Shown: positions 5,417 to 53,527 of the stretch, one piece after another | How positions within the stretch are numbered: the stretch's first letter is position 1 | Layout of the letters: every line of letters starts with the position of its first letter | From: Methanoregula sp. | GTDB taxonomy: Archaea > Halobacteriota > Methanomicrobia > Methanomicrobiales > Methanospirillaceae | Reading direction: 5' to 3' | Assembly: GCF_028679125.1 (NCBI RefSeq) | Contig: NZ_JAJRCG010000004.1 | Coordinates: forward strand, 83,017-147,016 | DNA: 64,000 nt | Notes under the pieces: generated by a model | Told to the model about the DNA's origin: nothing | Database searches by the model: none | The model's input: the letters and a program-made list of their open reading frames with translations, nothing else | Position numbers and translations under genes: made by a program

Positions 5417-5706
5417 GTGGGGGGGTCTGCACGATTTGAAACGCAAAGGGGAGGGGGGGTATGCCGGACACCCCCCTCCCCAAAAATGGGATGTACGCAT
5501 TATTGCACACGTTTTTTTGAGGGGTATTTTGCAGGTCTCCGACGGATCAGGTCATTTTCCGGCTACCCGAAAATGATCATGGGGGGGTATGATCCAGCCA
5601 AAGGGGGGGAGGGGTATGCCGGATACCCCCCCACCCCCAGGCAGGGGGGTCTGATCGTTTTGAAAACCGGAAGGTGGGGGGGTATCAGGCAGACCCCCCC
5701 CATCCC
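5417..5706. repeat. Three imperfect tandem G/C-rich hairpin units (G-run GTATGCCGGA[C/T]A C-run)
   Basis: GGGGAGGGGGGGTATGCCGGACACCCCCCTCCCC (5448-5481), GGGGTATGCCGGATACCCC (5611-5629) and GTGGGGGGGGTATCAGGCAGACCCCCCCCA (~5673-5702). Confidence 0.75.
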
Positions 5707-5728
5707 GCGGGCACAGAGCCGGCCGGTT

Positions 5729-6160
5729 TTACGCGTTCTGCCCGGTAAGGGAACCCATGACCTGTTCCATGGTCACCGGCAGGGTTTTGGAAAACGGAAC
5801 CGACCAGGAAAAAAAGATACAATCGATGACGGCCGTCCCCGTGATCGTGACCTTCACGCTCCCCCGGGTCACGAAGGCAGCGAGCGCCCCGATGAGAATT
5901 GCATTGTCCGAACTGACCGGGACGTGAACAAGGGTACTGTCCCGGGCAGGTATCTTCACCCGGCCGGTTTTTCCGGAAGCGATCTGACGGGATCGCTCCG
6001 CGTCCCGGCACAGCACCTTAAACGGCAGGTCGCGCAGGGTCACGCCAAGGGGATTGGGATTCTGCACCCGGATTGCCACATCGAGTTCAAGGGACGAGAT
6101 TGACAGGGAACAGAGCCGCACGTCTTCAAGGCTGACTTCCGGTTCGTGCAGGAGAGGCAT
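5729..6160 (-). CDS. LEA type 2 (WHy) family protein
   Basis: EPEVSLEDVRL...ELDVAIRVQNPNPLGVTL is the LEA_2 signature. Confidence 0.85.
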   Translation of the reverse strand: MPLLHEPEVSLEDVRLCSLSISSLELDVAIRVQNPNPLGVTLRDLPFKVLCRDAERSRQIASGKTGRVKIPARDSTLVHVPVSSDNAILIGALAAFVTRGSVKVTITGTAVIDCIFFSWSVPFSKTLPVTMEQVMGSLTGQNA

Positions 6161-13364: not shown

Positions 13365-14543
13365 TTGGTGGAAGTTATCAAATTTTATTCAGATGATGAC
13401 TATTTTGAAAGAATTCATGAGATACGTGCAATTATTGAAAATGAGATTGGATTAACTCAAAATTATATCTCAATCGTTCATTACAGCAATGTTGAAATTA
13501 TCGCATTGATTTTGGGAATATTGGCGATAGTAACTTATTTTTCATTTAATACATTTGCGATCATTTGGGTCGTAATAGGTCCCTATGCAATTTATAAGAC
13601 TCTTCAGATCAATTCAGGAATGGAAAGTCTAAAATTAAAACTTGGTTTTAGGAAAATTGAAAAAAAGAAAAAAATCAGCTTCAAAGAAAATTTTGTTATT
13701 GATATCCCTGATCGCTATCCAAAATTTTCTGATATCGACTTATTAGCACTAAAAATCCGTATTGTAAAAGGGGATAGAACAAGTGATAGTAAAATTAACG
13801 CAACTAATAATTATCTTTGGGCAAGCGCCTTTTCAATGAACGCTTTTAACAATCAAATCGGGTATTGGACAATCTATGCATCCATTATTGTTCTCTACAT
13901 CTATTGTGTTTTAACAAAAACAATAGAATTTAATTGGTTTCTAATTCTCTTTGGAATCCTTCAATTAGGCTCTTTTTATTATCTAACTGCTTTGGAAGGG
14001 AATCTTAGATATTTTGTGATAAATGATTTTAAACGCAATTTCTTATTTTTTCATATTCTATGGATTGGCTCAATAACTGCATACTATGTGGTCTTTTTGA
14101 TCAGTTACTTTTCACTGATTCTTCAACTTCTGACAGTTCATAATATTTTACTTCTTGGGATGGTGGGGATTTTAGAATATTTTGTTATTATGTTAGGAAA
14201 TGATTTTTTTTCTTCTACTATCGGATCTGGAATAATGAATGACAAATTAACCGAGCTTATCAGACTCCGTGATACAATTAACAATCAAATTTTCACTCGA
14301 AAGAGGTTAACTGATGATCCTGACATCTTCTATTATGATTATTTAGTCATGAGAAGATACAAACTGATAAAATGGAAGGGACTCCTTTTCGGAAAATATG
14401 TACTTGAGCCGGATTTATCAGATGATGATATCAGAACGCTTTCAGAATCATCATTACATTTTGAAATATTACAAGGTGAAGTTGGAATGAAGGGATTATT
14501 TGTTACAAATAAAGAAATTTTAAAGCGGTATGGATACGTGTAA
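13365..14543 (+). CDS. Hypothetical polytopic membrane protein, strongly AT-rich
   Basis: 392-codon ORF (TTG start) in very AT-rich DNA where stop codons would be frequent by chance; multiple hydrophobic stretches; no recognisable motif. Confidence 0.75.
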   Translation: MVEVIKFYSDDDYFERIHEIRAIIENEIGLTQNYISIVHYSNVEIIALILGILAIVTYFSFNTFAIIWVVIGPYAIYKTLQINSGMESLKLKLGFRKIEKKKKISFKENFVIDIPDRYPKFSDIDLLALKIRIVKGDRTSDSKINATNNYLWASAFSMNAFNNQIGYWTIYASIIVLYIYCVLTKTIEFNWFLILFGILQLGSFYYLTALEGNLRYFVINDFKRNFLFFHILWIGSITAYYVVFLISYFSLILQLLTVHNILLLGMVGILEYFVIMLGNDFFSSTIGSGIMNDKLTELIRLRDTINNQIFTRKRLTDDPDIFYYDYLVMRRYKLIKWKGLLFGKYVLEPDLSDDDIRTLSESSLHFEILQGEVGMKGLFVTNKEILKRYGYV

Positions 14544-14594
14544 AATCTTTTTTTAGAAAAAAATGATGGACACGGCCAAAATGTGAAACGATGT

Positions 14595-14630
14595 CCCCCC
14601 TCTTGCGCCCCCTCCGGGAGGGTGACAAGT
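14595..14630 (-). repeat. Partial (3') copy of the dispersed structured repeat
   Basis: 14595-14609 is the reverse complement of GGCGCAAGAGGGGGG, identical to 5378-5392 and 43441-43455. Confidence 0.7.
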
Positions 14631-14886
14631 ACGGGTCCCCCTCAAAACCCACCTCCCGCTGCCCGATCGCAGGCGACTTTCTGCGCCCAATTGATGCTAA
14701 TTAAACATTTCAGAGTCTCCGACGTTTAAAAATCAGTCCGGGCATTTTGCGGGAGGGAATCCGGGCTCATTGTACCGTTTTTCACCCAATTCGATCTGTT
14801 TTCGGGTGCCCGAAATCCGGGGCCCGGAAAAAGTCGGCAATATGGGCTCTGATCGGCAATCCGGGCGTAATATGGGGGGTCGCCCC

Positions 14887-15402
14887 TCATTCCCCCTGAC
14901 TCTTTTCCGACCTCTTAGTACCGACGGAGATTTCCCGGGGGGGTGCCTGGATCGGGGGTATGATTTCCGTTCCGGCCGGTATCTCCTGGGCCGGCACTGT
15001 CGGTTGAGCCTGCACTACCGGCACCGCCACAAACGCCGGCTTCGGTCTCTCCGGAATCATTGAGCCATCGCGGGAAAGTTCGATGAGCCCGGTGTCCGTG
15101 GCGCGGAAGAACCGGAACGCCCCGCGGGGCAGAAAGACCCAGAGCTCGCGGGAGATCCCGGGGCCGGACGCGATGGCCCGGAGCGCCGCAAGGGCATCGC
15201 GAGCTTCGCCTTCGATCCACGCATGCGAGCAGTGGACGCGGGTGACACGTTTGATCCGGACATGGGCCGTGAAGCCCGGACAGTAGATCACGAAGTTGCA
15301 GATCATGCCCGGCTCGTGCATGAACTGCCGGGTCTCGCCCCGCTTCTTTGCAATGTGCACGGCCTCGCTGAGCGCCACGAGCGGTCTCCGCCCGCGACTC
15401 AT
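14887..15402 (-). CDS. Hypothetical protein, putative Hjc/PD-(D/E)XK-like fold; paralog of 50814..51359
   Basis: 38/113 identities, ungapped, to the 50814..51359 product (RGR, AVxIAxKRG, CxFxI, VRxxR, ELWV, RFFR); Pro-rich tail. Confidence 0.8.
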   Translation of the reverse strand: MSRGRRPLVALSEAVHIAKKRGETRQFMHEPGMICNFVIYCPGFTAHVRIKRVTRVHCSHAWIEGEARDALAALRAIASGPGISRELWVFLPRGAFRFFRATDTGLIELSRDGSMIPERPKPAFVAVPVVQAQPTVPAQEIPAGTEIIPPIQAPPREISVGTKRSEKSQGE

Positions 15403-33398: not shown

Positions 33399-34049
33399 AT
33401 GTTTGAACGAATTTCCCGTCGCGAGGAAGCGGATCTCTTTGTTGCCTGGATGGCAATCGCCCTCGCGTTTACCATCATCAATCTCACGCCGTACGGCATC
33501 CTCGGGCCGGTTAACCCGGTCAGCCCGATAAGCGGCCTGATCTATTTCGCGATCGCTCTTTTTACCGTAGGTATCGGGTTCATCCTCCACGAGATGGCCC
33601 ACAAGTTCATGGCCATCCGGTTCGGGTACTGGGCGGAGTTCGTCAAGGACAACTCCATGCTCCTCATCGCCATCGTGATGGCGGCGCTGGTCGGCTTTGT
33701 CTTTGCCGCCCCGGGTGCAACGGTCATCTACTCAAAGGACGGGCGGAGCCTCACCCGCAGGGAAGACGGTCTCATATCGGCGGCAGGCCCGGTCACAAAC
33801 CTTCTCCTCTGCGGTCTCTTTACCGCACTGTTCTTCATTGCCGGTGGGATAACGGCGCTGAAAAGCGGCAATCTGATCGCCATGATCGGCCTTGCCGGTG
33901 TCCAGATCAACGCGATGCTCGCCGCGTTCAATCTCCTGCCGGTCAGCGTGCTTGACGGGCGGAAGGTGCTTGCATGGAACGCCCTGGTATTCATTGTCCT
34001 CATTGCTGCGGCATTCGGGACGCTCGTGGCCTCGTATTATCTCCTCTAA
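33399..34049 (+). CDS. Peptidase M50-like (site-2 protease) membrane metalloprotease
   Basis: HEMAH zinc motif; AGPVTN; FNLLPVSVLDG. Confidence 0.9.
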   Translation: MFERISRREEADLFVAWMAIALAFTIINLTPYGILGPVNPVSPISGLIYFAIALFTVGIGFILHEMAHKFMAIRFGYWAEFVKDNSMLLIAIVMAALVGFVFAAPGATVIYSKDGRSLTRREDGLISAAGPVTNLLLCGLFTALFFIAGGITALKSGNLIAMIGLAGVQINAMLAAFNLLPVSVLDGRKVLAWNALVFIVLIAAAFGTLVASYYLL

Positions 34050-34106
34050 TCCCCCGCAAATCTTTTTTTCTCCGAAGAAATCATCCGGAACGATCTGATA
34101 TATCAG

Positions 34107-34209
34107 GGACATCTCCCGTTGCGATGACGAGGAATTACCGGTGCCCTGTCACGGAGCATCGCACTGCGCCCCGTCTCCCCCGGGGACTGGTGGCGTAAAA
34201 TAGGGGGTC
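34107..34209 (+). repeat. Dispersed structured repeat, copy A (lacks the 5' hairpin)
   Basis: GGACATCTCCCGTTGCGATG...CATCGCA.CTGCGCCCCGTC..GGGGACTGGTGGCGT..GGGGG. Confidence 0.85.
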
Positions 34210-34253
34210 GTATACAAAGGGAAAAATGTTTTTCAAAACCGCACTTTTTTATT

Positions 34254-42631: not shown

Positions 42632-42985
42632 AGGAACAATGGGATCGTTTGCCCGGATTTTTTTGAAATTTTTTCCGGTTTTTAGATTTTCAACCGGGCT
42701 CTTTGAGAAATAAAAAATTCGGACAGATGATTCTGGAAATGTTTTTTGGTGCCGGGATTTTCCGGAGGTGCCTGAACCCTGTTTGCAGATCCAAGGCAGG
42801 ACCCCGGATGGATCCCCTCCGGGTGGGTTCAGCCCCCCTTCCCCGACAGGGTTTACCGTCGGAGAACCTTCTCCCGGGGAGTACCTCTCCTGCCCAATAC
42901 CCATGTTTTTCAAATCTGGCTCTTTTTGCCAAACAGAGTCCATTTTAACCGAATTTATCCGGCCCCTGAAATTTAGGGTAACCGA

Positions 42986-43233: not shown

Positions 43234-43548
43234 GGTGATTAGGTAAAGTCCACCAAAAGTGCTATAAACCTGAAACAAAATTTTCATTACCGCTCTTGGG
43301 GGCTCCGGCAAGCCTCCGCCCCCGCCGCTCGGACATCCCCCGGTTGCGATAGTGCCGTATAACCTGTACCTGTGTGTGCCCCCAATTAAGGTAATGCCGA
43401 GGCATCGCTAATAGCGCCCCGTCCCCCTCGGGGGACTGGCGGCGCAAGAGGGGGGCTGTATTTTTGTGTTCTCTGGAGCGCAAATCTAAAAAAACCTGAA
43501 TTGGCTCAATACTAACCATGGGTTAGTGGTGGACTTTACCTAACCACT
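43234..43548. mobile_element. MITE-like element, 315 bp, with 22-bp imperfect terminal inverted repeats
   Basis: 43234-43255 GGTGATTAGGTAAAGTCCACCA versus the reverse complement of 43527-43548, AGTGGTTAGGTAAAGTCCACCA (20/22, inner 17 perfect); A8 run on the left and A7 on the right; no ORF. Confidence 0.6.
43298..43455 (+). repeat. Dispersed structured repeat, copy B
   Basis: GGGGGC..GCCCCC hairpin; GGACATCCCCCGGTTGCGAT...ATCGC; GCGCCCCGTCCCCC-TC-GGGGGACTGGCGGCGCAAGAGGGGGG. Confidence 0.88.
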
Positions 43549-46754: not shown

Positions 46755-48155
46755 ATGAAATATCTGATGAAGTTCGGTGGGACATCGGTTGCCGATGCCC
46801 AGTGTATCCAGCGTGTTGTCGATATCCTGGAGAAACACCGCAAAGCAGGAGACGAACTCGCCGTTGTCGTTTCGGCACAGCGTGGCGTGACCGACCAGCT
46901 CATCGCGGTCGCGACCGCCCTTCCCACCGCAAAGGACAACTCCGCCATCGCCCCCCTGATCCAGTCGCTTTCCAAGCGCCACATCACGACCCTCGAAGGG
47001 GCAGCCCCCGATTACGTTGCAGAGGTCGGGGCGGATATGGAGGAGCACCTCATCAGGCTCCAGAACATCCTCAATGCGATCTACAACCTGCGGGAACTCA
47101 CTCCCCGCTCGAAGGACTATATCATCTCGTTCGGCGAACGGCTCCTCGCCCCCATCCTCTCGGCCGCCCTGCGCCAGCGGGGTATCCCCTCGTCCGTGAT
47201 GGACGGGTGCGAAGCCGGCATCCTCACCACCGCACAGCACGGGGAGTCAACGTCCCTTCCGGACAGCGACGAGCGGATCAAGCGCCGTGTCGGCCCCCTG
47301 CTCGGGAAGGAGATCCCGGTGATCATGGGGTTCATGGGCTGCACCCGGGACGGGATCCTCACCACGCTCGGCAGGAGCGGCTCGGACTACTCCGCCTCCA
47401 TCATCGGCGCGGGAATCGATGCGGACGAGATCTGGATCTGGACCGATGTGGACGGGATCATGACCTGCGACCCCCGGGTGATCAACGATGCCCGCGTGAT
47501 GACCTCGCTCTCGTACCTGGAGGTGATGGAGCTCTCGTACTTCGGTGCGAAGGTGATGCACCCCCGCTCGATCGAGCCGGCAATGCGGAAGAACATCCTG
47601 GTCCGAGTCAAGAACACCTTCAACCCCACCCACCCGGGCACGGTGATCGTAAAGAACGGCAAGCGGGACAACCGCGTAGTCAAGGCCCTCACGTACATCG
47701 ACAAGGTCTCGGCGATCAACATCAACGGCGCCCAGATGATCGGCAGGCCCGGCGTGGCAAAAGCGATCTTCACGATCCTTGCCGACAACGAGGTGAACGT
47801 GCTGATGATCTCGCAGGGTTCGAGCGAGGCGAACATCTCGCTGATCGTTGACGAGACCCATGTCGCTGCCGCGGTAAAAGCTCTCGAAGAGCTGAAGAAG
47901 AAGTGCGTTGTCCGCGAAGTCTCGCACAACAATGATGTCTGTGCGGTCGCCGTGGTCGGGGCCGGTATGGCAGGGGCGCCTGGCACCGGTGGGCGAATCT
48001 TTACGGCACTCGGGAAAGCGGGTGTCAACGTGATGATGATCTCTCAAGGGTCGAGCGAAGCGAACATCTCGTTTGTCGTGAGCCAGAACGACGGCCCGCG
48101 GGCGGTCCGGGTGCTCCACGACGAGTTCCATCTCTCGGAGGAAAGCGATGAGTAA
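46755..48155 (+). CDS. lysC: Aspartate kinase
   Basis: MKFGGTSV, TLGRSGSDYSA, WTDVDG, two ACT domains. Confidence 0.96.
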   Translation: MKYLMKFGGTSVADAQCIQRVVDILEKHRKAGDELAVVVSAQRGVTDQLIAVATALPTAKDNSAIAPLIQSLSKRHITTLEGAAPDYVAEVGADMEEHLIRLQNILNAIYNLRELTPRSKDYIISFGERLLAPILSAALRQRGIPSSVMDGCEAGILTTAQHGESTSLPDSDERIKRRVGPLLGKEIPVIMGFMGCTRDGILTTLGRSGSDYSASIIGAGIDADEIWIWTDVDGIMTCDPRVINDARVMTSLSYLEVMELSYFGAKVMHPRSIEPAMRKNILVRVKNTFNPTHPGTVIVKNGKRDNRVVKALTYIDKVSAININGAQMIGRPGVAKAIFTILADNEVNVLMISQGSSEANISLIVDETHVAAAVKALEELKKKCVVREVSHNNDVCAVAVVGAGMAGAPGTGGRIFTALGKAGVNVMMISQGSSEANISFVVSQNDGPRAVRVLHDEFHLSEESDE

Positions 48156-49197
48156 GACCATGGCAAAGAAACCTGCTGCAAAGAAAATGCCGGTAAAGAG
48201 ACCGGCAGCGAAGAGCGCCTATGCCCGGGCCGGTGTGGATATCGATCTCGAAGCAACGGCGATCAGGGCCCTGATAAAGAACCTCAGCTACAGGCGGAAG
48301 GGGAAGGCGAAGATGATGGGCGCGGTCGGCCACTTCGCCGGCCTGATAGATTTCGGGGAGCAGGCCCTTGCCCTGACCACGGACGGCGTGGGCACGAAGA
48401 TGCTCGTTGCCGATCAGCAGCAGGACTGGAGCACGGTCGGGATCGACTGCATTGCGATGAACGTGAACGATCTCTACGTGATGAACGTAGAGCCGATCGC
48501 GTTTGTCGACTACATTGCGACCGACAAGCTCTCCATCGACAAGATGGCCCAGATCGGGATCGGGCTGAACGAGGGCGCAAAGCAGGCGAACATCGATATC
48601 GTTGGCGGGGAGACCGCGTCCCTCAGGGGGCTCGTGAACGGCCTCGACCTTGCCGGCACCTGTTTCGGGATGCAGAAGAAGGATAAGATCATTTCTGGCG
48701 ACAAGATCAAGCCCGGAGAGAAGATCATCGGCGTCCCGTCAACGGGTGTTCACAGCAACGGCCTCTCGCTCGCCCGGAGTGTTGTCGAGAAGTACGCGGG
48801 CTACGACAAGAAGTTTGTGGGAAAGAAGACCTTCGGGCAGGAACTCCTCACCCCGACCCGGATCTATGCCGAGAGCCTGAAGGTCGCAGCGACCTGCACG
48901 GTGCACGGCATGTGCCATGTCACCGGTGGCGGGCTGCTCAACTTCAACCGGCTCAGCAAGCACGGGTTCCGGTTCGATTCGCCCATCACCCCGCCCGCCA
49001 TCTTCGGCTGGATCCAGAAGGCCGGGGATATTTCTGCGGTCGAGATGTACCGCACCTTCAACATGGGCATGGGGTATGCGTATGTGGTGCCGAAAGCGAG
49101 TGTGGCGTGCGTGCTGAAGATGGTGCCCGGAGCTCAGATAGTTGGGGAAGTCGTGAAGGAGCCCGGGGCGTTTTTGGGCGATCTTGAGATAACATAA
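48148..49197 (+). CDS. purM: Phosphoribosylformylglycinamidine cyclo-ligase
   Basis: YARAGVD, TDGVGTK, GGETA, STGVHSNG, TFNMG. Confidence 0.97.
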   Translation: MSKTMAKKPAAKKMPVKRPAAKSAYARAGVDIDLEATAIRALIKNLSYRRKGKAKMMGAVGHFAGLIDFGEQALALTTDGVGTKMLVADQQQDWSTVGIDCIAMNVNDLYVMNVEPIAFVDYIATDKLSIDKMAQIGIGLNEGAKQANIDIVGGETASLRGLVNGLDLAGTCFGMQKKDKIISGDKIKPGEKIIGVPSTGVHSNGLSLARSVVEKYAGYDKKFVGKKTFGQELLTPTRIYAESLKVAATCTVHGMCHVTGGGLLNFNRLSKHGFRFDSPITPPAIFGWIQKAGDISAVEMYRTFNMGMGYAYVVPKASVACVLKMVPGAQIVGEVVKEPGAFLGDLEIT

Positions 49198-49308: not shown

Positions 49309-49797
49309 ATGGTAGAATTTTCCCCGGTCAAGGACACCGATCTGGCAGCGATCCTGGAGATCTATAATCACTATATCCTGAATTCAACCGCGACATTTCA
49401 CAGCGAGAAATTGTCCAGAAAAGATCTGAAAGAATTTCTCTTCATCTCCCATCCGAAATATCCATCATTTCTGATAAAGGATAATGACGAGACGATCGGG
49501 TATTGTTTTTTGACCCAGTACAAAAAGCGGCAGTCATACGACCGGTCTGCTGAACTGAGTATCTACCTGAAACCGGAATTCACCGGCAAAGGTATCGGCC
49601 CGGCTGCCCTGGGCCATCTTGAGGCAGCCGCAAAAAAGGCCGACATTCATGTGCTGGTCGGGACCATCTGCGGGGAAAACCAAGCAAGTATCCGGCTGAT
49701 GGAAAGGGCCGGCTTTTCGAAGTGTGCCCACCTGAAAAACATCGGTGAAAAATTCGGAAAGGTTCTCGATGTCGTGGTGTACCAGAAAGAGATCTGA
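49309..49797 (+). CDS. GNAT N-acetyltransferase (YncA/Pat-like)
   Basis: EIYNHYI..TATF, SIYLKPEFTGKGIG, KFGKVLDV. Confidence 0.9.
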   Translation: MVEFSPVKDTDLAAILEIYNHYILNSTATFHSEKLSRKDLKEFLFISHPKYPSFLIKDNDETIGYCFLTQYKKRQSYDRSAELSIYLKPEFTGKGIGPAALGHLEAAAKKADIHVLVGTICGENQASIRLMERAGFSKCAHLKNIGEKFGKVLDVVVYQKEI

Positions 49798-49817: not shown

Positions 49818-50228
49818 TTATTTTCCGGTCCTTGTTTTCCCTGCTTCATCCGCCACAACCCCAGCCGCGATCACCATGGCCGGAATTACAAGATATCTCA
49901 AACCGATCTGCGCTGCATAATCCGGCAGCGTCATCCCCAGCAGCCCGACGAGCACGATCAGATCCAGCACCCAGTTGGCGAGCAGCCAGACCATGCCGGT
50001 GACAACCGCCTCGCGTGTGTAATTCTTTTCAACCGGCCGGAAGCACCAGATGATCAGGATCGCGGCCGTGATCGATCCGACCACGATCATCAGCGACTTG
50101 AAGAGCTGTTGGTCGATGAGCAGCCCGTCTTTTCCATAGAACGGGATGGCGCAGACGAACGGGATGAGCCAGGTCAGGAAGGCGCCGATGAGACGGCGGC
50201 GCCAGATCGTATCGAATGTGAATGACAA
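49818..50228 (-). CDS. Small 4-TM hypothetical membrane protein
   Basis: Four hydrophobic segments and GC-rich codon usage. Confidence 0.7.
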   Translation of the reverse strand: MSFTFDTIWRRRLIGAFLTWLIPFVCAIPFYGKDGLLIDQQLFKSLMIVVGSITAAILIIWCFRPVEKNYTREAVVTGMVWLLANWVLDLIVLVGLLGMTLPDYAAQIGLRYLVIPAMVIAAGVVADEAGKTRTGK

Positions 50229-50325
50229 GAGGAAACACCTGTGCTCAATTTCTCACCCTGCCGGACGATGAAGATGGAGGATTCGATCCGGAGCAATCGG
50301 ATCGTTGTTGAAAATTTTTCATTAC

Positions 50326-50598
50326 GATCACGATGGCAATTGAAAATTTTTTCCGGATCGATCGAACCCTGATGAAATTTTTTTCAGCAGACTTTGATGA
50401 AAATTTTCGGTCGGATCTCGATGTGCCATTCAAAAAGATCTTTGACGCTCCCGGGGCCTTTGCCCCCGCCGCGTGGGCGTCCCCCGGTTGCGATGATGCC
50501 GCATTACCCGGATACCATTTTGTAAAATATACGGAACAGGTAATTCCGGGACATCGCAAGCGCCCACGCCCCCTCGGGGCGGGCTGGCGCAAGGGGGG
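50326..50598 (+). repeat. Dispersed structured repeat, copy C (left segment plus core)
   Basis: Left segment GATCAC..ATTGAAAAT..CCGG..ACCCTGATGAAA; core GGGGC-CTTT-GCCCC, TTGCGATG/CATCGCAA and GCGCC..GGCGC AAGGGGGG. Confidence 0.88.
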
Positions 50599-50755
50599 CG
50601 GATCTCCCTCGAAAGAATCTCCCACCGTCGAAAGACCCGATCCGGACCCCCTGTTTCTGTCCGAAATCAAGACCCCGGTCCATCCTAGCCTGAGTTATGC
50701 CCCTGTATTAGCGCTATTTGCGGATCATTTTTTACGACGTGAAAATGGTGAAAAA

Positions 50756-50816
50756 AGGGTACTTAGTCCCTCATTTTTCCGAATTAGGCCCTCATTTTAG
50801 GGTACTTAGTCCCTCA
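50756..50816 (+). repeat. 18-bp direct repeat AGGGTACTTAGTCCCTCA x2 with a partial copy between
   Basis: Exact copies at 50756-50773 and 50799-50816; TTAGGCCCTCATTTT at 50784-50798. Confidence 0.8.
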
Positions 50817-51359
50817 CCTCTTTTCGGCAGGGGGATTCTCCGACGGTGATTCTCCAGAACAAAGGGGTGGGGATGCACCCTCTGAAAGGGGTATTTCTAC
50901 CGACGGTGGGATCATGCCTCTGTCGGATCCCCCGACCCCGGTTCCCTCCCCTCCATTCCGGGTAACCGGTACTTCAGCTGTACCGGCATTCCCGTTAGCC
51001 GGGCCGGCAGTTCCCGGCTCACCGCTCTGCTGGATCTCTTCGAGCCCCGCAGTGGTCAACCGGAAGAAGCGGTAGGTCCCGTGCTTGGAGTAGACCCAGA
51101 GTTCCAGCCGGATCTGTTGCGATGGCGGGAACAGCCGGAGCTCGGCAATCATCCTGCGGCACACGAACTCGATCTCGCTCGCCGGCGCAACAATCTTTTC
51201 AATGCGCATGACCCGGACAAAGATCACGAGCATCACGGCCCGGATAAAAAAATCGCAGACACTGTCATGAGCGTACGTGACCCGCATTACGCAGCCGCGT
51301 TTCCGTGCAATCGCGACAGCATCATTGATGCCCCGCGTTGCCGGCCGGCCGCGGTTCAT
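50814..51359 (-). CDS. Hypothetical protein, putative Hjc/PD-(D/E)XK-like fold; paralog of 14887..15402
   Basis: 38/113 ungapped identities to the 14887..15402 product; CDFFI then VIFVRVMR; Gly/Pro-rich tail. Confidence 0.8.
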   Translation of the reverse strand: MNRGRPATRGINDAVAIARKRGCVMRVTYAHDSVCDFFIRAVMLVIFVRVMRIEKIVAPASEIEFVCRRMIAELRLFPPSQQIRLELWVYSKHGTYRFFRLTTAGLEEIQQSGEPGTAGPANGNAGTAEVPVTRNGGEGTGVGGSDRGMIPPSVEIPLSEGASPPLCSGESPSENPPAEKR

Positions 51360-51515
51360 GGATGGGGCCTCTGTGGTTTGCTGGTGTTGATCATGGGGAG
51401 TGCTCCTGTGACGGGTGGCTGCGTGAATCAGTGATCGTGCCGGAAAATTTCATTGTGAGCGTAAGATATTGTATTATTTATTTTCGTAAGATAGATTTGG
51501 TTGGATCAATAACGT

Positions 51516-51567
51516 GATCAGAATCGCGATTGAAAATGTGAGCCGGTTTTACCAGACCTTGATGAAA
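51516..51567 (+). repeat. Isolated left segment of the dispersed repeat
   Basis: Ungapped match to 50326-50377, about 37/52 nt (GATCA..AT.GC.ATTGAAAAT.....CCGG.........ACC.TGATGAAA). Confidence 0.7.
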
Positions 51568-51624
51568 GATTTGAGCGGCGGAGGTGAAGTTCGAGAGGGT
51601 GTAAAAAATATTTGAATATTTCAA

Positions 51625-52479
51625 TCACTTATTTTGTTCTAATAAAAATCCAAGAGACAATCCTAACGTTTCAGATAATCCACCATTGACTAATTGAAAG
51701 AAAAACATTTTCTCTCTTCCATCTTTCTGAATTTCAACTCCATTATCATAGCAATTATAAGAAATAATTTTATTAAGTGGGATATTGGTTCCCTTTTGGC
51801 CGATAACCGGATGAAAAATTAATCTGGTATTTGTTAAAATTAGGTGTCCTCTTGATTTTTCGACTAATCTATCTTCTTTAACCATATGTCCTCGATAAGC
51901 CCCCACGCGATAACTTACTCCTTTTGCTACACGGAAAGAAAATCCATGTGATCCGCCAACATATCCAAGGTTAACAGATTTCATCTCTTTCCAAAAGGCA
52001 GTTGTAGCAAAATGTGCGGTCTCATTTTTCTTCAATACAATGGAGGCTGAATCTCCTTCAAAATGGACTACTGGGAGCTTTCCTTCATTTCGAATCATGT
52101 AAACATATTGATATGGGAGAATACGTTCATCATACTTGACATCCTCATTTGACAGATTCAATTGTTTTTGATAAGTGATCAGAGATTCAAGTTCGCCTTT
52201 GTCCAATTCTTTATCATTAGAAAAATTTTCCCATATTTCAGAAAAAATGCGTATTTGATCAGATTTGTGTGATTTCTTTAAAAAATCCATTTCAGGATCG
52301 GTAAGCGTTTTAGTATCAATAATTGTGTTTTTGATTCTAGTCAAATCACTCTGATATTGTGCTTCAATTTTTGCCCGTTCCGCTTTTTCTTTTGCCAAAC
52401 AGGTATCACAAAGTTCTCTTCTTGAGAATCGTTGAAAAAAAGAAAATGGTGTACCACAATTTTTACAGAAGTTTGACAT
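51625..52479 (-). CDS. AT-rich hypothetical protein: N-terminal Zn ribbon, C-terminal PH-like domain (inferred)
   Basis: CKNC..CDTC; GGSHGFSFRVAKGVSYRVG..GHLILTNTRLIF..IPLNKI; low GC. Confidence 0.8.
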   Translation of the reverse strand: MSNFCKNCGTPFSFFQRFSRRELCDTCLAKEKAERAKIEAQYQSDLTRIKNTIIDTKTLTDPEMDFLKKSHKSDQIRIFSEIWENFSNDKELDKGELESLITYQKQLNLSNEDVKYDERILPYQYVYMIRNEGKLPVVHFEGDSASIVLKKNETAHFATTAFWKEMKSVNLGYVGGSHGFSFRVAKGVSYRVGAYRGHMVKEDRLVEKSRGHLILTNTRLIFHPVIGQKGTNIPLNKIISYNCYDNGVEIQKDGREKMFFFQLVNGGLSETLGLSLGFLLEQNK

Positions 52480-52634
52480 TTCTAAACCTCTATTTATTAT
52501 AATGTCTAATTTTGATTGATGCTATAATATTTTTACTAATTTTATCGCAATCCCGTTAGAATCACAAATTGTGAGTAAAATTGCTCTCGCAATAGACGCG
52601 GCTAAAAATTTTAAGGGGATGTATTACGTTCTTT

Positions 52635-52799
52635 GGGGCTCCGTGCTGCTACACCCCCGCTGCGTAGGCATCCCCCGCGTTGCGATGACCCAGTCTTACC
52701 AGAACATATCATTCATAGGATGTGTTCTTGTTCTCTCACTCCGAGGCATCGCAACTGTGCCCCGTCCCCCAACGGGGGATTAGTGGCACAAGAAGGGGG
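52635..52799 (+). repeat. Dispersed structured repeat, copy D
   Basis: GTTGCGATG (52679-87) and CATCGCAAC (52747-55) form a perfect 9-bp IR; outer stem GTGCC/GGCAC; AAGAAGGGGG. Confidence 0.88.
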
Positions 52800-52990: not shown

Positions 52991-53527
52991 CTACTCGTCT
53001 TCCGGCACATACTTTTCCTTCGTAACGCCATCGGCAATAATCCCGCTGTTGCCGCTCGGATCCTCAAGAATCAGCGTGATGGGGAACGTCCCGGTCTTCA
53101 CCCGGGCAATATCCGCGAGGAGAGCGGTTGCGTTCTCCTTCTCTATGTCCGTGCCCCAGCGGAAGGCCCCTTTCACGACCTCCACGATCCGGTCGAGCAC
53201 GCCCTCCACGTTCGAGACAAACCCCTGGCAGACGGGGCCGGGATCGATCCGGACGCCCAGTTCCGGGATCTCGATGCTGGCGCTCATGCTCCGGATCACG
53301 CGGACCGAGAGGTCGTCTTCTGTATGGATGGCCAGCGTATACCGCGCCGGCTCGTTGTGTTTTAAGAGCTGCGTATCGACGAACTTGTACCCGCACGAAG
53401 GGCAGATGGCGGAAATGATGAGGATATCGGAAAAATAAGGAATATTTTCTGTCTTATACAGGTATTCGATATCAGTATTGCAACAGGGACACGGACCCGG
53501 GACGACTACCTTCGTTTCTGCCTGCAC
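52991..53527 (-). CDS. ZPR1 zinc-finger domain protein
   Basis: CPCC..IPYF..CPSCG; VEGVL; LEDPSGNS. Confidence 0.94.
   Translation of the reverse strand: MQAETKVVVPGPCPCCNTDIEYLYKTENIPYFSDILIISAICPSCGYKFVDTQLLKHNEPARYTLAIHTEDDLSVRVIRSMSASIEIPELGVRIDPGPVCQGFVSNVEGVLDRIVEVVKGAFRWGTDIEKENATALLADIARVKTGTFPITLILEDPSGNSGIIADGVTKEKYVPEDE

Follow-up and report, generated by a model that had tools for sequence, protein, structure and literature searches.

The window analysed here is a stretch of 64,000 nucleotides of a Methanoregula genome (contig C4:83017-147016; assembly of 2.67 Mb in 33 contigs, ~55% GC, labelled G000). Its purM-ZPR1 interval contains several small genes and copies of two kinds of repeat, designated here L and core:

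48148-49197, + strand: purM (AIR synthase; Pfam AIRS/AIRS_C), the left anchor, syntenic in all relatives examined
49309-49797, + strand: GNAT gene
49818-50228, - strand: membrane ORF
50296-50417, + strand: L-family copy upstream of core C (nhmmer 89 bits, E 3e-25)
50438-50604, + strand: core copy C, C-subtype (nhmmer 125 bits, CM 137 bits)
50690-50850: short "mid" repeat
50814-51359, - strand: ORF181, member of a multi-copy Methanoregula orphan family (tblastn)
51504-51573, + strand: L-family copy, the left segment of the original prediction (whole-genome nhmmer scan, E 3.3e-13)
51576-52600, no strand: putatively inserted AT-rich DNA, approximate extent with fuzzy breakpoints (G008 L-core junction compared with both G000 flanks)
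51625-52479, - strand: AT-rich orphan gene (P0001, 284 aa, from translation)
52619/52626-52803, + strand: full-length core copy D, D-subtype (nhmmer 150 bits, CM 141 bits)
52991-53527, - strand: ZPR1 zinc-finger protein gene (Pfam jr-ZPR1 and Zn_ribbon_ZPR1), the right anchor, syntenic in relatives

A single ORF is present between the second L copy and core D, where GC is 0.31-0.39 as compared with about 0.55 genome-wide. The original prediction saw here a single repeat split into left and right halves around an AT-rich gene cassette, and the parts it described are indeed present. The match of 51516-51567 to 50326-50377 (37/52, ungapped) is exact, and the left segment is real, reaching slightly further to the left in the profile search than had been stated. 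The core copy to the right of the gene is complete and high-scoring, and there is one low-GC gene (33.7% GC) in between. A further supposed left fragment, a 16-mer at 42663-42678 ~620 bp ahead of core copy B, has to be given up: it has no nhmmer match, its exact string is unique, and it sits in the T-rich tail of a gene.

ORF181 has nine paralogues in G000 and 124 homologue clusters, with no Pfam domain. When ORF181 and the AT-rich gene were searched against Pfam, NCBIfam, PADLOC and PHROGs, only a weak GRAM match and one weak PHROG match of unknown function were obtained. The ORF181 segment (window 50735-51495) is 91-100% identical at the nucleotide level to the closest species, G263, whereas the flanking genes are about 85% identical; in its coding part, 9 synonymous and 9 nonsynonymous differences were counted. 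The high identity could be due to recent exchange of this ~760-bp piece or to an unusual constraint on it. Note also that a 43-bp tandem duplication (GGGTACTTAGTCCCTCA...) is present within the mid repeat (window 50757-50799), and that G263 does not have it.

A whole-genome nhmmer profile search revealed 29 L loci in G000. Seven of them are ~420-bp arrays, none with a core (C10:32126-32532, C8:72959-73377, C22:42047-42448, C7:75646-76064, C21:17901-18326, C5:61199-61600, C2:257156-257522). Each array consists of two ~120-bp L units, 281 bp apart, around a spacer, with ~28-bp CAGACCYTG/GAAAAATTTT repeats throughout. The arrays fall into two subfamilies, one of which has the palindrome ATCGCGATCACGATCGCGAT. 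L would thus appear to be one unit (about 70-120 bp) of a dispersed ~420-bp array family. Possible functions of the arrays are a protein-binding-site array or another non-autonomous element. Replication-origin (ORB) repeats were considered as well and rejected, because L has as many as 29 loci and because the arrays nearest to the two cdc6 genes are 28 kb and 56 kb away. A metagenome contig with a homologue of the AT-rich gene (46% identity) also has a short L-like piece (ATCAGGGTTTGGTGAAAAATTTTCAATCGCGATCA; L013:2073-2115) ~170 nt upstream of that homologue; this is probably a coincidence of common intergenic motifs.

The core family comprises 41 loci in G000 according to nhmmer (43 hits with a covariance model). 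The core is a ~165-nt multi-hairpin module with an optional 5' GGGGGC...GCCCCC hairpin, a long arm TTGCGATG...CATCGCAA with a hypervariable tip, a GCGCC..CCCCC-loop-GGGGG..GGCGC hairpin and a closing CCCCC/GGGGG stem. When 40 strong forward-strand copies, taken from many Methanoregula MAGs, were aligned, 91% of the pair cells proved to be standard pairs. Two-sided (compensatory) changes were found in 15 of 27 pairs, as compared with 5-6 with slid partners, in an alignment that is fitted to the model and leans towards structure. The mismatches (38 G-U vs 39 A-C) carry no strand signal. No Rfam family matched the window at gathering score, and raising E up to 10 gave chance-level hits only. Among 150 sampled genomes of the order, the core was found in 11 of 12 congeners, 15 of 29 members of the same family and 14 of 20 members of one other family; none was found in four further families. 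No description of L or core repeats was found in the literature.

Some cores are parts of larger elements, the best defined of which contains copy B:

43234-43548, + strand: 315-bp MITE with core copy B (TIRs GGTGATTGTGTAACATCCACC / GGTGGACTTTACCTAATCACC, A/T-run duplications)

This B-type element is represented by 13 copies in G000 (92-98% identity, 22-bp TIRs, cores inside), and the one at copy B is missing from the orthologous 140-bp spacer of G263. It is therefore small, non-coding and multi-copy, with TIRs, TSD and insertion polymorphism, as is characteristic of MITEs. No autonomous IS with B-type TIRs was found in the G000 assembly. A second inverted repeat, GCTCTGTAGAAATC...GATTTCTACAGAGC, brackets many non-B cores, ~25 nt upstream and 20-30 nt downstream (C5:1082-1264 in G000; loci L106, L134, L137, L083, L085, L111). 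As these two kinds of ends are unrelated, the same module is carried by at least two MITE types. The core, which compensatory changes keep foldable, thus occurs either solo or inside two or more different MITEs bounded by TIRs. Neither TIR type and no TSD is present at cores C and D.

We consider it a tentative possibility that the core represents a structured nucleic-acid module of a new kind, which could be a small RNA gene or a hairpin signal in single-stranded DNA. It would be maintained by compensatory evolution in Methanoregulaceae and a second family of Methanomicrobiales, occurring solo and as the payload of two or more unrelated MITE families, and its hairpins would make flanking spacers prone to rearrangement and foreign-gene uptake. 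If the core is an RNA gene, discrete ~165-nt one-strand transcripts would start near GGGGGCUCC. Two further sites in the window belong to this family or its surroundings. A partial core without the 5' hairpin is located between convergent genes at 34020-34211, where the spacer of G263 is ~190 nt shorter and has no core. Three G-run/C-run hairpins (CAAAGGGGAGGGGGGGTATGCCGGACACCCCCCTCCCC) lie directly downstream of core A (5444-5706), and similar sequence flanks the C11 MITE.

Do L and core belong together? A core is found within 100 nt of L at just three loci (copy A, copy C and an L next to the C1 B-type MITE), and 26 of the 29 L loci and 38 of the 41 core loci stand alone. The direct passage of L into the core that had been described thus holds at three loci, but not elsewhere; with L joined to 3/41 cores and the core to 3/29 L loci, L is not the left half of the core repeat. 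L and core are independent repeat families. Some link between them, e.g. a shared target preference, remains as a weak signal, as L stands just upstream of a core in 3-4 cases vs about 1.4 expected (a rough random-placement estimate, not computed by a tool). Furthermore, an AT-rich flank (<40% GC) adjoins 4 of the 41 cores vs 2.5% of genome windows. Both weak associations fit a shared preference for long A/T-rich spacers: A/T runs are duplicated by the B-type MITE, and GAAAAATTTT abounds in L. We also considered cores as markers of AT-rich islands and rejected this, as 4/41 is only a weak signal.

According to the alternative suggested by the original prediction, a single mobile element that can take up cargo, comparable to an integron cassette or composite MITE, would have L as its left and the core as its right end. 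L indeed precedes the core in the same orientation in copies A and C, at a distance of 20-75 nt, and the gene lying between L and core D has a foreign composition. However, most loci of either family are solitary, and cores are mobilised in MITEs with non-L ends. No TIR or TSD surrounds the L...core unit or the gene: a repeat search of 51380-52700 gave only 10-16-mers of chance size inside the gene. No tyrosine recombinase (PF00589) is encoded on contig C4, the only matches being at C2:22769 and C3:171376. A search for other L...gene...core arrangements returned none in the G000 genome, and no such unit was found at non-homologous loci; the only other copy is the syntenic one in G263.

The purM-ZPR1 interval of relatives is organised as follows:

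G014, G010, G017, G016 and others: 90-300 bp, no repeats
G001, G006, G004: 1.5-2 kb of other DNA
G008 and MAG contig L142: purM-core-L array-core-ZPR1
G160: L-core-ZPR1
G002: L array-core-ZPR1
L187 (Logan contig): membrane ORF-L-core C remnant-mid-ORF181-about 266 nt with an L-ZPR1; no AT-rich gene, no core D
G263: ORF181-decayed L-AT-rich gene-collapsed core D

Interval length thus ranges among congeners from 90 bp to >17 kb, and the gene is missing from the interval in at least nine related genomes. The breakpoints are not base-exact, the intergenic DNA of "empty" relatives being only about 65-70% identical. The empty allele that the original prediction proposed to look for exists (G008, L142, G160 and G002, with L187 also lacking the gene). 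The distinction of filled and empty sites therefore stands, as L-core-ZPR1 occurs without the gene, whereas the idea of split halves of one repeat falls, since two families are involved. In other words, of the two observations named beforehand as speaking against the prediction, the independence of L from the core was made, and the lack of an empty allele was not.

In G263, the flanks are 84-86% identical to G000, and window 50612-52640 is present as one block, with 13.8 kb of extra genes on the left and two extra genes ahead of ZPR1. Within the block, identity is 91-100% for ORF181, 84-95% for the AT-rich gene and 58% for L, the most decayed piece. Identities of 97-100% to G263 in the ORF181 part, as against about 85% in the flanks, hint that some or all of the block was exchanged more recently. 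L187 has an ORF181 protein with 98% identity to that of G000, and flanks with 80-94%. Core D of G263 (L034:5920-5960) has been reduced to ACGTTCTTGGGGGC joined to AGGACTGGCACAAGGGGGGCG, leaving 14 nt of the 5' end and ~21 nt of the 3' end, and only TTGACGCTCCTGGGGG is kept of the core C orthologue of L187 (reverse complement 5734-5807). Core collapse by internal deletion was thus seen twice. The cores themselves can also be followed between species: core C is 75.6% identical to the sole core adjoining ZPR1 in G002, and core D and the ZPR1-side core of G008 (G008b) have in common a GTGCC/GGCAC stem variant, the CAACGGGGGA loop and CCCCCGCGTT, as does L140.

These comparisons bear on the one-element explanation as well. 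L precedes the core at purM-ZPR1 of G002, G008, G160 and L142, as this explanation would have it. However, L187 keeps both L copies without a full core, having just the core C remnant and no core D, and the arrangement is vertically inherited with G263, where L decays fastest and the core is internally deleted. With the families separate and with no TIR/TSD, no recurrence and no integrase on the contig, L plus core is not supported as a cargo carrier, and we regard a single mobile element as very improbable.

The product of the AT-rich gene, P0001, is predicted to consist of an N-terminal CxxC...CxxC zinc ribbon, a helical middle and a C-terminal PH/GRAM-like beta-sandwich (AF2 pLDDT 87). The C-terminal domain gave a weak GRAM match and Foldseek hits to PH domains; a sequence search of the PDB gave nothing. 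The family is small (14 clusters among 5.8 billion proteins). The gene is single-copy in G000 and has homologues in 2 of 48 sampled congeners, one of them only 42% identical. Order-wide, 24 of 301 genomes match P0001, most via the C-terminal domain only and few over the full or nearly full length. Relatives of the C-terminal domain were found on bacterial plasmids and none in a phage collection. The Methanoculleus taiwanensis homologue has a cluster of small unknown genes as neighbours, of which two gave weak hits to DUF87 and PDDEXK_5. In G000, the gene is preceded by an AT-rich upstream region of its own (~120 nt). A comparison with G263 (protein 91% identical) revealed 51 synonymous and 26 nonsynonymous codon differences, and the gene is therefore under purifying selection. 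The AT-rich gene is thus both foreign in composition and conserved. Several features expected of horizontally acquired genes come together here: GC of 0.34 vs 0.55, absence from the syntenic site of relatives, a patchy family and conserved anchors.

It could be argued that the gene was already at this locus in the ancestor and that the relatives have lost it, AT-richness being a property of the gene family rather than a sign of transfer. Indeed, GC of the P0001 family is 0.32-0.45 in every host examined. However, the homologues in so few congeners and genomes of the order, the one in a cluster of small unknown genes and the relatives without the gene in the purM-ZPR1 interval all speak against it, and we find ancestral presence improbable in the extreme. 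The direction of the event was taken to be gain rather than loss.

Other AT-rich sites in the genome also contain cores. A second AT-rich gene (13365-14543, GC about 0.30) is accompanied by an ORF181 paralogue (14887-15402), with no L, and by what we take to be a core 3' fragment, as given in the original prediction (14595-14630). Gene, core fragment and ORF181 paralogue at 13365-15402 form the same trio as at purM-ZPR1. Furthermore, an AT-rich island (C2:19500-29000, L189; GC 0.26-0.45) contains a tyrosine recombinase gene (L189 2877-3797), tRNA-Gln (5671-5743) and two cores (C2:21813-21972 and C2:26609-26766), the second of which adjoins a 517-aa AT-rich gene.

Another possible scenario is that the gene and core D arrived jointly, as a ~1.25-kb segment beside a resident L, with the core marking one end as a recombination-prone hairpin or a hitch-hiking MITE. 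L187, which lacks core D as well as the gene between ORF181 and ZPR1, both being present in G000 and G263, is a point in its favour, and so are the four cores with an AT-rich flank, the core fragment beside the second AT-rich gene (13365-14630) and the cores within the integrase island on C2. Against this, a D-subtype core is present at the same place and in the same orientation without the gene in G008, L142/L140 and G160, and the AT-rich Logan contig L016 shares the gene only (51618-52541, 80% identity), with no core. As gene-less relatives possess a D-subtype core, the simplest reading is that core D predates the gene and was lost from L187. That L187 lost core D is indeed more likely than that it never had one, because cores collapse by internal deletion in two cases. 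Joint arrival therefore appears unlikely to us.

The pattern of presence and absence in relatives is best explained by the entry of an AT-rich foreign gene into the repeat-crowded, variable purM-ZPR1 spacer between two unrelated repeat families, and this is probably what happened. L followed by a D-subtype core beside ZPR1, being common to several species, would be the older state. About 1.0 kb of AT-rich foreign DNA, comprising the gene and its promoter region, would have entered the L-core spacer in the common ancestor of G000 and G263, as the gene is found between L and core only in these two, the gene being retained by selection thereafter. The insertion route was probably illegitimate recombination or the decay of a larger integrated element, since no signals of transposition or site-specific recombination remain. 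Weighing against this reading are the fuzzy breakpoints, the lack of both gene and core D in L187, the slight excess of L copies upstream of cores and the high ORF181 identity to G263.

The case is thus a fairly ordinary one: a cargo-carrying split element is not supported, whereas a real insertion in a repeat-rich hotspot is. A plausible "split repeat with cargo" can arise by chance when a foreign gene lands amid unrelated repeats, and the example guards against over-calling cassette systems in archaeal MAGs. As by-products, two undescribed Methanoregula repeat families were obtained, a covariation-supported hairpin with >40 copies per genome and the ~420-bp arrays, and purM-ZPR1 is now a defined hypervariable locus at which gene gain and repeat turnover in Methanoregula can be studied.

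How does the locus compare with known systems? As in integron cassettes (attC and IntI), a structured, imperfectly palindromic site adjoins a foreign gene. However, there is no integron integrase and no cassette array, the gene has an AT-rich upstream region of its own, and the core is a multi-branched module of about 165 nt with copies throughout the genome, most of which have no foreign gene next to them. In a composite transposon or MITE, the cargo would be flanked by one element twice, whereas here it is flanked by different families, L on the left and core on the right. Copy B and its 12 sisters resemble archaeal MITEs (315 bp, non-coding, ~22-bp TIRs, A/T-run target duplications, species-level presence/absence), but differ from them in that a ~165-nt structured module is carried by unrelated ends and in that the G000 assembly contains no autonomous partner. 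REP/BIME, ERIC, Correia/NEMIS, RUP and BOX elements resemble the core in their dozens of intergenic copies per genome, hairpin potential, subfamilies and internal deletions; unlike these bacterial repeats, the core is archaeal (Methanoregulaceae and one further family), bears no sequence relation to them and forms larger branched folds. The acquisition of genomic islands at hotspots shares with this locus the conserved anchors (purM and ZPR1), the variable interval, the deviant composition and the patchy gene. Here, however, a single ~1-kb gene was acquired, with no tRNA target, integrase or direct repeats, and it entered the spacer that separates two repeat copies.
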